Source: Candidatus Moanibacter sp. (GTDB taxonomy: Bacteria; Verrucomicrobiota; Verrucomicrobiia; Opitutales; UBA2987). From it: a stretch of DNA of 64,000 nt. Of this stretch, positions 24,001-27,000 are shown one piece after another. Made by a program: the position numbers. Position 1 is the first letter of the stretch; each line of letters starts with the position of its first letter. Where the stretch lies: assembly GCA_965215885.1 (NCBI GenBank), contig CBDCEW010000100.1:128001-192000 (forward strand), given 5' to 3'.

Positions 24001-27000
24001 TCGTTGTGGAAGGGCCTCCCCCGGAAGTTCTGAAACCGCAACTCGTCGAGAGGGTATTCAATGTGAAGGCGCGAATCATTGAGGATCCTTTGTCCGGCCG
24101 CCCCTCGATCGTGACCGATCCTGTCTGAAAGATAGCCGTTCGAAAGTTTCTCGCGGATTCTTGAACTCGAATATTGACATGAGGCGGTTTTCCAGTAATA
24201 TGCGATAGTAGTTCTCAAAGAAGCTTTACACACTATAGAATTTGTTCATAACAATTTGTTAACTTTCTGTCCCCCGACAGAATCAGGTAGTAGTAGTAGT
24301 AATAAAAGCCGCCAACTTCGGTTGGCGGTTTTTGTTTGCAACGGTGAGAGCGGTCATACAGCGAGTCAGTAAGGCATCGGTAGCAATCGACGGCGAAGTT
24401 ACAGAGTCAATTGGTAAGGGGTTCCTAGTCTATCTCGGTATCGATTCAGAAGATACGCGGGAGGATGTGAAGTGGCTGAGCGGGAAAATTCCTCAAATTC
24501 GTGTTTTTCCCGACAGTGCCGGATTAATGAACCGCTCTCTACTCGACTGCGGCGGTGAAGTCCTGGTAATTAGTCAATTCACTCTATTTGGAAGTCTGAG
24601 AAAGGGAACTCGCCCTTCCTTCAACCGCGCTGCATCACCGGAAGTAGCTGTTCCAATTTACGAAGCCTTCCTACTATCGCTTGAGGAGCAACTTGGAAAA
24701 TCCGTTGCAAAGGGCGAATTCGGCGCTCTCATGAGAATTGAATCGATAAATGAAGGACCGGTTACGTTGTTCATTGATTCCAAGAACAGGAAACTGTAGC
24801 CCACTTTTCTCACCAGACATAGAGAATGAAAGGTAAAGTCTTGGGCGAAGGCTTTTTTGATCGGCCTACATTGACGGTGGCGCGCGAGTTGATTGGAAAG
24901 AGACTCTGTCGTAGAATTGACGGGCGCTGTGTGAAAATTCCCATTATGGAGGTTGAGGCCTATGATGGAGTTAAGGATAAGGCATCGCACGCCCACCGCG
25001 GTATTACGAAACGGAACGCAGTGATGTTCGGTCCGGCCGGCTACTGGTATGTCTACCTTTGCTATGGCATTCACTGGCTTCTCAATATCGTGACCGGCCC
25101 TCGAGAATATCCGGCGGCAATACTCATAAGAGGCGCGGGGGAGTATAGAGGTCCCGGACGATTAACTAAGGCATTGGAGATCGATAAGAGTCATGACCGT
25201 TTGTGCGCCAAACCGCATAGCGGTCTATGGGTGGAAGAGGGTGGCCTAAGGTTACTTTCGTCAGCAATTGTGCGGAAGCCACGGATTGGGGTGGACTATG
25301 CTGGACTCCAATGGAGCCGTAAGCCATACCGGTTTTCGATTACTCGCGGACATATTTGTTGAAGAGCGCGGCATAGTCTTCCCGCACCGGGCTGAAGACA
25401 TCAAGGACCGTCGCCGGACCATCCACGGGTTTGGCGGAGTGGGGAGTGAGGGACGGAATTATGAACATCTCCCCCGGTTCGCATATACGCGTGTCTTCAC
25501 CGATGGTCAGCTCCATCTTCCCTTTCAGAAGCATTCCGGCCTGCTCATGCGGATGCTTGTGGAGAGGAATGACGGAACCCTCGTCCAATTCGAGGTAGGA
25601 CAGCATGACATGTTTGCCATACGGTGTGCGCGCCCTTGCCCCCGGCGCCAGTTCTATCGGTTCGTAGTCGTCAATATTGATGAATGGCATAGCATTCTCT
25701 TTCAAATTAGTGATAATCTCAAATTAGGAATCTGTCGGACTTTTGGCACATGATGAATGACAAGAACGCAAATCTCGAAGACGCTTCAATCCCGATACCT
25801 CTACAGGAATATCTGTTCGATCTTCAAGGTTATCTGAATCTTCACAAGGCCTTGACGGTTGAAGAGGTTGGGAGAATCAATCTCGAAATCGATACCGTGC
25901 CTCGTTTGCAGCGAGGAGAATGGCACCGCAATGTTCGCCGCCGCGACCAGCGCGAAGATCTAGGCGTCAATCTCCAGCAGGTGCTCGAACTAGGCGGTCC
26001 GTTCGAAGAGCTGATTGACCATCAGTCTTGGATCGATCTCGTTTTGCGCTTCGTGGGCGGAGACGACGGACTCCAACTCGCTGAGAATTTTGTAAATTTG
26101 AGGGGGCCGGGTGAGGCCATAGGATTACATTCCGGGGCCCACAAGAGGCGCATTCGTACGTGCTATCGCTATCACAACAGCCAGTTTCGTTGTGGCCAGA
26201 TCAATATCCTGGTCGCGCTCACCGACATCGGTCCCGGTGACGGCGCAACCATGGTAATCCCGGGAAGCCACAAATCAAATATCATACACCCCCGGTTGGA
26301 GGAACCCCAGCAACTTTCAGGTTCCGTCGATGAAGTGGAGGGTGCGATTGAAGTTTACCTCGAAGCTGGAGACGCCCTCTTATTCGTTGATTGTCTCGCC
26401 CACGGTTCCGCCAGGCGCGTGAATGAAGGGGAGAGGCGCATCTTAATCTATCGTTACGGTCCACAATGGGGTAATTACTTCTCAGGCTATCAACCATCGG
26501 AGGAATTGTTAAACCGATTGAACGTGCGACGGAGAACGATCGTTCAGCCAGTACCCCCGATCCGACCTCCGAATTGACGGATCAAAAGTTCCCATCTCGT
26601 TGTTCGAACTTGGTCGGCTTGTTCCAGATCTTCCCCTTCTCAAGCAGCCAATGGGCGGTCCAGGAGGCCATATCATCGATACTTACTCGAGGCCGGCCGA
26701 ACAGTCTATGCGCTTTTTCAGCGTTATTGAGCCATGCTGTATCCGCTTCCTGACCGGTGTAGACAGGTGCCTTTTCGAATATCTTCCCGAATTTCGAAGC
26801 GAGTTTGCGCACGGAGAGAGTATCCGGACCCGTCACATTAATAATAGACGGCGGAGATCCGGCATTATCCAGAGATTGGATGGAGTGCGCGATCGCGTCG
26901 CTCTGCCAGATGAGATTCACATATCCCATCGTCACGTCGACGGGTTCACCGGCCAGAACCTTTGTCGCGATATCGACTAATACACCATAATGAAATTCAA

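Follow-up and report, generated by a model that had tools for sequence, protein, structure and literature searches.

Among the many PhyH-type oxygenases of an Opitutales-like verrucomicrobial genome, which has about 100 such genes, some lack the acidic residue of the usual iron-binding motif. This raises the question of what such proteins do with the vacated position: leave it to a halide, as radical halogenases do, or fill it with a carboxylate from elsewhere in the chain, as in HygX, the Fe(II)/2-oxoglutarate oxidative cyclase of Streptomyces hygroscopicus that closes the hygromycin B orthoester (PDB 4XC9, 4XCA, 4XCB and 4ZPI). We examined one of these genes, encoding a 275-residue protein (P0001), in a 64,000-nt stretch of DNA (the window).

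The oxygenase gene and its paralogues

Given the size of the family, we examined both the protein itself and its place among the paralogues. P0001 matches the Pfam PhyH family (PF05721) over residues 23-230 with an E value of 2.6e-16 (61 bits, cut-off 22), a match that covers profile positions 1-212 of 213. The ORF is genuine, and its product is a PhyH-family Fe(II)/2-oxoglutarate oxygenase. The initial annotation had described the same reading frame and, within it, residues H127, S128, G129, D214, H218, R229 and R230, all of which we found in place (Table 1). An NCBIfam search assigned no family to P0001 or to an H-G-G paralogue discussed below, and an ESM Atlas search with P0001 returned generic PhyH clusters only. 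Because no hydrophobic leader was apparent by eye at the N-terminus, the protein, a soluble one in our reading, probably is cytoplasmic. Two short contigs from RNA libraries map on the gene (X11 at 26376-26604 and X20 at 25764-25923); these metatranscriptome libraries may contain DNA, and thus the contigs show presence only, while the uncovered parts of the gene are uninformative.

Table 1. Coordinates, within the window, of the oxygenase gene, of codons discussed in the text and of neighboring genes.
Feature	Position	Strand	Assignment or basis
Oxygenase gene (P0001), 275 aa, ATG start	25750..26577	+	PhyH-family Fe(II)/2-oxoglutarate oxygenase, HygX-like subtype
Codons H127-S128-G129: proximal His, and Gly at the usual iron-binding Asp site	26128..26136	+	Alignments
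Codon N152, aligned with HygX Lys137	26203..26205	+	HMMER alignments, 'qinil' over HygX 'YVKAL'
Codons D214-C-L-A-H218: proposed relocated acid ligand and distal His	26389..26403	+	Ungapped alignment with HygX
Codons R229-R230; R229 is 11 residues past the distal His	26434..26439	+	Invariance, HygX alignment
Small Cupin_2 gene, divergent from the oxygenase gene	25340..25705	-	PF07883, E 9e-14
NAD-dependent epimerase/dehydratase family gene, convergent, ending 5 bases from the oxygenase stop	26582..27610	-	PF01370, E 6.4e-10; no NCBIfam match
Zinc alcohol dehydrogenase, most like L-threonine 3-dehydrogenase	28094..29161	+	ADH_N, ADH_zinc_N; TIGR00692 185 bits, below cut-off 458
PLP-dependent enzyme of the threonine dehydratase type	29482..30516	-	PALP; NF004771 480.7 bits, cut-off 317

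Searching the whole genome for PhyH, we obtained 106 matches at E ≤ 0.001. All exceed the cut-off, and they correspond to 106 ORFs, 95 of which are at least 180 aa long; the earlier counts of 102 and 94 are thus close to ours. In a MAFFT alignment of the 95 paralogues, H127 falls in the canonical His column (H in 92/95) and G129 in the acid column (D in 86/95). With H-S-G in the H-x-D columns, P0001 lacks the canonical H-x-D/E...H facial triad, while the distal His and a basic residue for 2-oxoglutarate (R229) are present. After odd paralogues had been realigned, 11 of the 95 proved to be without the acid (8 HxG, 2 HxS and 1 HxV), where the initial annotation had counted 10 (7, 2 and 1). Nine of these 11 carry [DE]-x3-H, the other two being a D-x4-H protein and a truncated one, exceptions of the two kinds already recorded. 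By comparison, D/E at position -4 from the distal His is found in 5 of the 84 paralogues that retain the acid, a figure obtained from 7/86 by subtracting two rows that had been misaligned and count as acid-less; the ratios previously given, 8/10 and 6/84, are much the same.

All 11 acid-less paralogues lie on one side of a single branch (FastTree support 92), and the association between loss of the usual acid and an acid at -4 therefore counts as a single event: judged by this tree, the motif contrast among the paralogues is one evolutionary event, not ten independent ones. P0001 is one of four close paralogues within this 11-member clade; the other three were found at the places reported for them and share 60, 57 and 54% identity with it.

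Iron site and kinship to HygX

The initial annotation had interpreted P0001 as an oxygenase with a HygX-type relocated acid, based in part on a PDB profile search with HygX as the best match at E 8e-16. In our searches of PDB sequences, HygX likewise was the best match, both with the single protein (E 4.9e-14) and with a profile (E 2.7e-16), and in the phmmer and the profile alignment alike, fvDclaHG of P0001 lies gap-free over lnEALMHG of HygX. The canonical PhyH-type enzymes, hydroxylases and fungal dioxygenases of meroterpenoid or alkaloid pathways such as PHYH (2A1X), EctD, AsqJ, SptF, FtmOx1, TlxI/J and PrhA, share the Pfam family, the fold (Z 22-24), the distal His and the 2-oxoglutarate-binding Arg with P0001, but their sequence matches are far weaker than that of HygX (E 3e-5 or worse). 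Those enzymes are known to retain the acid of H-x-D/E, which 84 of the 95 paralogues have as well.

We also compared an AlphaFold model of P0001 (pLDDT 88.0, pTM 0.88; the pLDDT noted before was 78.6) with known structures. The weakest part of the model is the loop after HSG, residues 131-140, with a mean pLDDT of 68. At E ≤ 0.001, Foldseek returned at least 500 matches; those listed are all PhyH-type oxygenases. The top 10 are HygX chains only, as the initial annotation had it, with E values of 1.3e-18 to 2.8e-17, TM scores of 0.66-0.76 and 21-23% identity, versus 12-18% for the other matches listed. In VIA-align, HygX (Z 24.6) is tied with SptF, FtmOx1 and TlxI (Z 23.7-23.8). For the modeled protein, Foldseek and VIA-align (Z 22-24.6) both support a double-stranded beta-helix fold.

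The proximal motif is more difficult to place. HSG does not fall over H-G-G of HygX in either of the direct HMMER alignments: in phmmer, R118 pairs with HygX His102 and H142-N-S with HygX H-D-G; the profile alignment begins only past the motif, at profile residue 122. The H-x-G link between the two proteins instead appears to go via a bridging paralogue with LHGG...E-x3-H (L004:9553-10368), residues 2-223 of which align with HygX at E 3.7e-12, LHGG over LHGG and pEALCHG over nEALMHG. Which HygX His serves as the metal ligand is our inference. H142 was considered as the iron ligand of P0001 and rejected, as it is His in just 37 of 43 aligned relatives and other members of the clade have F or Q at the hairpin position. 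The HxD-to-GSH spacing is 47 residues from H127 and 32 from H142, for a canonical range of 31-67 with a mode of 37, and does not discriminate between the two.

P0001 and HygX thus share the PhyH double-stranded beta-helix fold and a proximal H-x-G, and relative to the distal His both have an acid at -4 and an Arg at +11. They differ in that identity is just 21-26%, Asp stands for Glu, and the loop after the proximal His is ~10 residues shorter in P0001, as counted from the alignments. In addition, excerpts of a review (PMC13374393) describe the HygX motif, H-X-G...E-X3-H, together with Lys137 as a gap-filling residue, which is not kept in P0001; the residue aligned with it by HMMER is N152. 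The proposal of a relocated acid thereby holds for the ungapped placing of D214, the invariance of the motifs (see below) and the best PDB sequence match, and has to be qualified for the indirect placing of HSG, the loss of Lys137 and the tie in VIA-align.

Based on these comparisons, we suggest that iron would be held by H127, H218 and D214, with D214 replacing the carboxylate absent from the H-S-G site and D214-x3-H218 reproducing the HygX arrangement with Asp for Glu. R229, which the HMMER alignments pair with the Arg of 'GDRLL' in HygX, would hold 2-oxoglutarate; it likely is the partner of the C5 carboxylate, a role that we presume by analogy with other PhyH-family enzymes. The usual iron-binding acid has most likely shifted to a different strand, as in HygX, and P0001 most likely functions as an oxygenase with an iron site of the HygX type and not as a halogenase.

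As a radical halogenase, P0001 would use the iron position left by H-x-G for chloride or bromide and halogenate an unactivated carbon. Its H-S-G does occupy the place of the halogenase H-x-G/A motif, which is also given in excerpts of the review cited above (PMC13374393). The habitat probably is marine and halide-rich, and a flavin 'Trp_halogenase' family gene adjoins a family member in 4 of 75 loci from other genomes, though this enzyme class is unrelated. SyrB2, WelO5 and BesD represent the Fe(II)/2-oxoglutarate halogenases, in which Gly (or Ala) replaces the facial-triad acid as G129 does in P0001, but to our knowledge they have no carboxylate to take over the vacated iron position, whereas the invariant D214 of P0001 would, by homology, sit at the position of the HygX Glu. 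Moreover, no halogenase is named among the 27 PDB sequence matches (E ≤ 1), the 26 profile matches (E ≤ 0.01) or the Foldseek and VIA-align matches listed, no carrier-protein or NRPS genes are nearby, and the family is very widespread, in settings that look catabolic. Collectively, these observations make a halogenase very improbable.

Conservation across the family

Of 5060 candidates, 4245 (clusters at 90% identity) are relatives of P0001 at E ≤ 0.001, the same counts as obtained previously. The best 120 share 53-68% identity with P0001 (53-70% in the initial annotation) and, as stated there, carry names no more specific than 'phytanoyl-CoA dioxygenase family protein'. The family comprises 1214 representatives at 50% identity and is found in at least 501 species-genome stretches, from Chloroflexota, Latescibacterota, Verrucomicrobiota, Poribacteria, Gemmatimonadota, SAR11-like Alphaproteobacteria and other groups.

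H127, S128, G129, D214, H218, R229 and R230, seven residues reported as invariant in 25 members, are invariant in all 43 relatives that we aligned. The same is true of R118 and R136, while R140 is kept in 42/43 and the position of N152 is Asn in 42/43. HSG...D-x3-HGS is carried by 78 of 81 family ORFs from other genomes (75 loci, at least 9 phyla). Among 48 full-length representatives of the 50% clusters, 33 are without the acid at +2 but have one at -4, and 2 show the reverse, HxD with no acid at -4; the remainder are 1 with both acids, 1 with neither and 11 that are incomplete or misaligned. Lys is found at the HygX Lys137 position in 3 of the 33 motif-bearing representatives, all 3 of which have Glu at -4.

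The pairing of the two acids also bears on whether D214 binds iron at all. Iron could be held by two histidines, as in human AspH, with D214 serving as a base, in the second sphere or in substrate binding. Such two-His sites can be active, as excerpts of a study of AspH report (PMC10947486), and the position of D214 relative to iron rests on homology, with Asp one methylene shorter than the Glu of HygX. However, the ungapped alignment sets D214 on the metal-binding Glu of HygX, and in the 33 of 48 representatives noted above an acid missing at +2 is matched by one gained at -4, with the reverse in 2. We consider a two-histidine site distinctly unlikely.

Similarly, the conservation speaks against a non-catalytic or decayed paralogue in an over-expanded family, a notion that the ~100 paralogues in one genome, the truncated clade member and the D-x4-H member might invite. 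The frame of P0001 is intact, and over at least 9 phyla, at 53-70% identity, its putative catalytic residues do not vary; the small contigs of two metatranscriptome libraries on the gene add a weak hint in the same direction. Loss of function therefore appears scarcely credible.

Gene neighborhoods, substrate and significance

The initial annotation had also assigned the genes to a sugar-breakdown setting. This description fits three paralogues and some relatives in other phyla but not P0001 itself, whose neighbors are the Cupin_2, SDR epimerase/dehydratase, Tdh-like and threonine dehydratase genes of Table 1; none of nine exemplar carbohydrate families is encoded within 5 kb of its gene. For the genome overall, 56 of the 106 PhyH genes lie within 5 kb of these families, compared to 398 of 2000 places picked at random. 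Among the four close paralogues, three adjoin, in turn, a sulfatase and BNR_2; GH127, GH2, GFO and Ldh_2; and a Zn-ADH, a xylose-isomerase-type barrel and Ldh_2.

An ORF that overlaps the cupin gene (25268-25753, + strand) was taken as an antisense artefact and has no family match. A conserved small upstream ORF likewise was rejected: this ORF and L002:9899-10234 each share 4 bases with the start of the oxygenase gene, but they look unrelated by eye and have no family matches.

Within three genes on either side of the family gene in the 75 loci from other genomes, enolase-superfamily (galactonate-dehydratase-like) genes are found in 13 loci across 3 phyla, DHDPS-type genes in 7 and sulfatases in 8, with the sulfatase loci all in Chloroflexota. 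GFO/IDH/MocA, aldo-keto reductase and SDR genes, sugar ABC and MFS transporters and AraC regulators also recur near family genes, and a metallo-beta-lactamase-fold gene adjoins the family gene in two Poribacteria loci. No neighbor is universal across the 75 loci, the commonest being present in 13/75 and most recurring ones being confined to one lineage. Ldh_2 was rejected as a partner, as 3 of the 11 clade members here have it within 5 kb, yet it is present in 0/75 loci elsewhere. In the neighborhoods examined, no biosynthetic genes surround P0001 or its three close paralogues. In contrast to HygX, P0001 has no aminoglycoside or orthosomycin cluster around it, and its family occupies variable, catabolic-looking settings in many phyla.

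The substrate probably is a small imported metabolite, likely a sugar, a sugar acid or another carboxylate. An anionic or sugar-derived substrate is suggested by the invariant R118 and R136 and the near-invariant R140, together with the sugar-type neighbors across loci. Ordinary ferryl chemistry would be the most likely reaction, namely hydroxylation or an ensuing dealkylation or elimination. As a whole, the reading of P0001 as a relocated-acid PhyH-fold oxygenase that carries out ordinary ferryl chemistry on a small metabolite has, in our estimate, slightly more in its favor than against it.

As a special case of this reading, P0001 might act on modified sugars as an O-demethylase or by oxidative desulfation: hydroxylation at an O-methyl carbon would free formaldehyde, or at a carbon bearing sulfate, the sulfate. 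PhyH-family enzymes, one of them from Poribacteria, demethylate 2'-O-methyl nucleosides according to excerpts of a recent report (PMC12709175), and both the sulfatases at most three genes away in 8/75 loci and beside one paralogue and the carbohydrate families near 56 of the 106 PhyH genes are in line with such an activity. However, the sulfatase neighbors are confined to Chloroflexota, and we regard this special case as rather unlikely.

The site of HygX action on its glycoside is the anomeric carbon, C1''. By extension, relatives that lack Lys137 might introduce a hydroxyl group at the anomeric C-H of a glycoside taken up by the cell, giving a hemi-orthoester that would break down to an aldonolactone and the freed sugar or aglycone, a scheme to which we give only a slim chance. 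The metallo-beta-lactamase-fold gene of the Poribacteria loci could then encode a lactonase. If true, this would be an intracellular, oxidative, hydrolase-free cleavage of glycosidic bonds, an Fe/2-oxoglutarate counterpart of the C1-oxidizing lytic polysaccharide monooxygenases, and the aldonate would feed dehydratase and aldolase steps, with the enolase-superfamily (13/75) and DHDPS-type (7) genes adjacent in three phyla.

Returning to the relocated-acid oxygenase as the preferred reading, we note that an expansion of PhyH proteins has been published for Poribacteria (Kamke et al., 2014; PMC3909097), where, in excerpts of that study, PhyH outnumbers every other domain family, with numerous divergent paralogues in a sulfatase-rich genome; acid-less members are not mentioned in these excerpts. 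The HSG family is also present in Poribacteria (4/75 loci). For the genome analyzed here, the closest matches of the SRP54 protein are from Coraliomargarita and Opitutales; Poribacteria were therefore rejected as its source, and the expansion extends beyond that group. None of the papers listed by a literature search on fucoidan, Verrucomicrobia and polysaccharide utilization contained 'phytanoyl-CoA dioxygenase'. As far as our literature searches show, the relocated-acid iron site is in print for a single antibiotic-pathway enzyme, HygX.

A HygX-type site, with Asp for Glu and without Lys137, would be an invariant feature of a family that numbers thousands of unnamed proteins. If genome mining takes H-x-G as the mark of a halogenase among PhyH proteins, this family will be mislabeled. 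It also makes up a sizeable part of the large PhyH expansions in sulfatase-rich marine and sponge-associated bacteria. Identification of the substrate would reveal the role of the HygX-type site beyond antibiotic biosynthesis.

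Acid-less PhyH paralogues of the genome

The oxygenase is encoded by an intact ORF and matches the Pfam PhyH family (PF05721) nearly end to end (E 2.6e-16, 61 bits, cut-off 22). Two short metatranscriptome-library contigs map onto the gene, only a weak hint of its expression. Since the closest named matches of the SRP54 encoded in the window were Coraliomargarita, Opitutales and Oceanipulchritudo proteins (66-69% identity), we assigned the genome (105 contigs, 6.36 Mb, 53% G+C; rated 90.3% complete and 5.47% contaminated) to an Opitutales-like verrucomicrobium.

A PF05721 search of this genome gave 106 matches, every one over the cut-off, and the identical search of 14 control genomes gave none. 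A 2014 report (PMC3909097) describes a PhyH expansion of this size in Poribacteria; on that account the sheer number of paralogues, seen here in another phylum, is not new as a phenomenon. First-look PhyH-like candidates numbered 48 and 53 in sister-genus genomes of 2.6-2.7 Mb, 127 in one of 8.3 Mb, and 9-15 in a further genus of this family; it seems that only certain genera have undergone the expansion. Two pairs of matches on different contigs have identical scores and open-frame lengths (Table), which may reflect contig duplication or very recent copying.

All 106 open frames were extracted, and the 95 of at least 180 aa were aligned with MAFFT. The canonical proximal His column (H127 of the oxygenase) holds His in 92 of the 95, and the column of the acid of the usual His-x-Asp/Glu iron motif (G129) holds Asp in 86. 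After two rows misplaced by MAFFT were reassigned, 11 paralogues lacked the acid (8 H-x-G, 2 H-x-S, 1 H-x-V). Asp or Glu four residues before the distal His (position -4) was found in 9 of these 11, compared with 5 of the 84 acid-bearing paralogues, counts that should not be read as independent trials; the remaining two acid-less proteins are a truncated one and one with D-x4-H. The initial annotation had counted 94 paralogues, 10 of them acid-less, with 8/10 against 6/84 carrying the -4 residue, and our numbers agree within one gene. The three close paralogues it listed were also recovered, at 60, 57 and 54% identity to the oxygenase. A single branch (local support 92) of a FastTree tree of the 95 proteins separates all 11 acid-less genes from the others, and thus both motif changes go together once in the history of the genome. 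The observation of an acid-less PhyH gene stands.

Table. Locations of the oxygenase gene and other features (without prefix, window positions)
Feature	Location	Strand	Remarks
Oxygenase	25750-26577	+	275 aa, ATG start
Cupin_2 gene, small	25340-25705	-	E 9e-14; divergent from oxygenase; overlaps end of methylpurine glycosylase ORF
Long ORF, presumed antisense artefact	25268-25753	+	Ends 4 bases inside oxygenase gene; no family match
D-Tyr-tRNA deacylase, methylpurine glycosylase			Upstream of oxygenase; housekeeping
SDR epimerase/dehydratase			Convergent to oxygenase
Tdh-like zinc dehydrogenase			Neighbour
Threonine dehydratase			Neighbour
Phage-type integrase	290-1222		Mobile element
IS110-family transposase	30853-32163		Mobile element; ~4 kb downstream of oxygenase
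DDE transposase	37775-39445		Mobile element
ORF, 605 aa	7249-9066	-	No Pfam match at E<=0.01
ORF, 260 aa	9141-9923	+	No Pfam match at E<=0.01
Dense PhyH island (L003)	C100:78001-98000		Three acid-less clade members and further PhyH genes
Adjacent acid-less pair	L003:4413-5435, 5303-6325		In PhyH island
Tudor-matching gene	L003:8734-9579 (C100:86734-87579)		In PhyH island; 282 aa; several eukaryote-type Tudor models (Tudor_3 E 4.8e-27, two stretches)
Bridging paralogue	L004:9553-10368		Acid-less clade, more distant
PhyH pair	C81:41377-41754, C10:6188-6565
PhyH pair	C38:793-1410, C81:22560-23177

Relation of the oxygenase to HygX

The best PDB sequence match of the oxygenase was HygX (E 4.9e-14; runner-up TlxI, 3.4e-5), as it was when a profile built from 43 relatives was used as query (E 2.7e-16). 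An AlphaFold model based on the 43-sequence alignment (pLDDT 88.0, pTM 0.88) was weakest at residues 131-140, directly after H-S-G (mean pLDDT 68). The top ten Foldseek hits were all HygX chains (E 1.3e-18 to 2.8e-17, TM 0.66-0.76, 21-23% identity), followed by fungal PhyH-type dioxygenases at ~1e-14. With VIA-align, HygX (Z 24.6, rmsd 3.7, 221 aligned) tied with SptF (23.8), FtmOx1 and TlxI (both 23.7), and HygX is therefore singled out by sequence, not by fold alone.

All residues named previously (H127, S128, G129, D214, H218, R229 and R230) are present in the oxygenase. In both the single-protein and the profile alignments, its fvDclaHGs lies ungapped over HygX lnEALMHGT, with R229 matched to an Arg. 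The equation of H-S-G with the H-x-G of HygX, also proposed in the initial annotation, did not emerge from these alignments: in the phmmer alignment the His of HygX L-H-G-G stands over R118, an invariant residue, and a second HygX motif, H-D-G, over H142-N-S, and the profile alignment begins only past H-S-G. H142 was rejected as the iron ligand, being His in only 37 of the 43 relatives (Tyr, Arg, Phe and Asp also occur), compared with 43/43 for H127; in the model it caps a predicted hairpin (strands 140-142 and 145-147). The equation did find support in the conservation of H127 and in the bridging paralogue, which aligns with HygX over residues 2-223 (E 3.7e-12), with LHGG over LHGG, pEALCHG over nEALMHG, and Phe over the second His. 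Given the invariance of H127, this alignment, and the [LMIA]-H-x-x common to all acid-less clade members at the proximal His column, we infer that HygX His102 (4XC9 chain numbering, counted from alignments) is a ligand and H127 its equivalent. After H127 comes a loop ~10 residues shorter than its HygX counterpart.

The passages on HygX in a 2026 review (PMC13374393) give its motif as H-X-G ... E-X3-H, liken it to halogenases, and have Lys137 filling the gap. Lys137 aligns with N152 of the oxygenase, which is Asn in 42/43 relatives. The oxygenase is no orthologue of HygX: it shares only 21-26% identity, carries Asp for the relocated Glu and Asn152 for Lys137, and has no biosynthetic cluster around it.

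The HSG family in other genomes

Among 5060 candidates, 4245 matched the oxygenase at E<=0.001; the best 120 share 53-68% identity, the fullest name being 'phytanoyl-CoA dioxygenase family protein', and NCBIfam has no model for the family. After clustering at 50% identity, 1214 representatives passed E<=0.001, with 407 passing 1e-10 and 60 passing 1e-30. The best 150 included 48 full-length proteins, which we aligned: 33 lack the acid and carry Asp or Glu at -4, two keep H-x-D with Gly at -4, one has both acids, one has neither, and 11 were incomplete or misaligned. This sampling beyond the genome somewhat strengthens the acid-swap contrast. Lys at the HygX Lys137 position occurs in 3 of the 33, distant ones, all with Glu at -4. 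Distant representatives such as P0169, P0195 and P0228 combine H-x-G, E-x3-H and this Lys, and their active sites look closer to that of HygX than those of the HSG family.

At least 501 stretches of species genomes encode a relative. We kept 77 loci, 75 with a recognisable ORF, and HSG ... D-x3-HGS was present in 78 of their 81 family ORFs. The 75 loci are from Chloroflexota (27), Pseudomonadota (15), Latescibacterota (10), Verrucomicrobiota (8), Gemmatimonadota (4), Poribacteria (4), Planctomycetota (3), Armatimonadota (2), Lentisphaerota (1) and an unassigned phylum (1). Among 20 relatives of the source genome the family is patchy (5/20).

Gene neighbourhoods and candidate substrates

The sugar-breakdown setting proposed in the initial annotation holds for the three close paralogues: one adjoins a sulfatase and a BNR_2 gene, another lies among GH127, Ldh_2, GH2 and GFO/IDH/MocA genes, and the third among Zn-ADH, xylose-isomerase-type barrel and Ldh_2 genes. 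It does not extend to the oxygenase gene itself, which has none of nine exemplar carbohydrate families within 5 kb; the real gene beside its start appears to be the minus-strand Cupin_2 gene. Genome-wide, an exemplar family occurs within 5 kb of 56/106 PhyH genes, compared with 398/2000 random places. Ldh_2 (malate/L-lactate dehydrogenase 2 family) occurs within 5 kb of 3/11 acid-less PhyH genes, 5/95 other PhyH genes and 35/2000 random places, and beside the HSG family in none of the 75 loci of other genomes.

Within three genes on either side in those loci, the most frequent neighbours were an enolase-superfamily gene most like galactonate dehydratase (13/75; Chloroflexota 10, Poribacteria 2, Pelagibacteraceae 1), other PhyH genes (11), ABC ATPases (10) and permeases (9), AraC regulators (8), sulfatases (8, all Chloroflexota), and a 762-aa FAD_oxidored gene, a DHDPS-type gene, an MFS transporter and a class II aldolase (7 each). 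Most occur in a single lineage; such surroundings fit the catabolism of sugars or sugar acids without pointing to a substrate. Two Poribacteria loci (L078 and L082) keep the order metallo-beta-lactamase-fold, enolase-superfamily, canonical PhyH and HSG-type PhyH, with a methyltransferase and a 764-768-aa dienelactone-hydrolase-like gene on the opposite strand.

R118 and R136 are invariant and R140 nearly so among the aligned relatives, which suggests an anionic group on the substrate. As recently reported (PMC12709175), PhyH-family enzymes, one from Poribacteria, demethylate 2'-O-methyl nucleosides, a precedent for sugar-directed dealkylation in the family. The protein is most likely a working Fe/2OG oxygenase with D214 as carboxylate ligand, in the manner of HygX, and not a halogenase; our best guess for its substrate is a small carbohydrate-derived acid or sugar.
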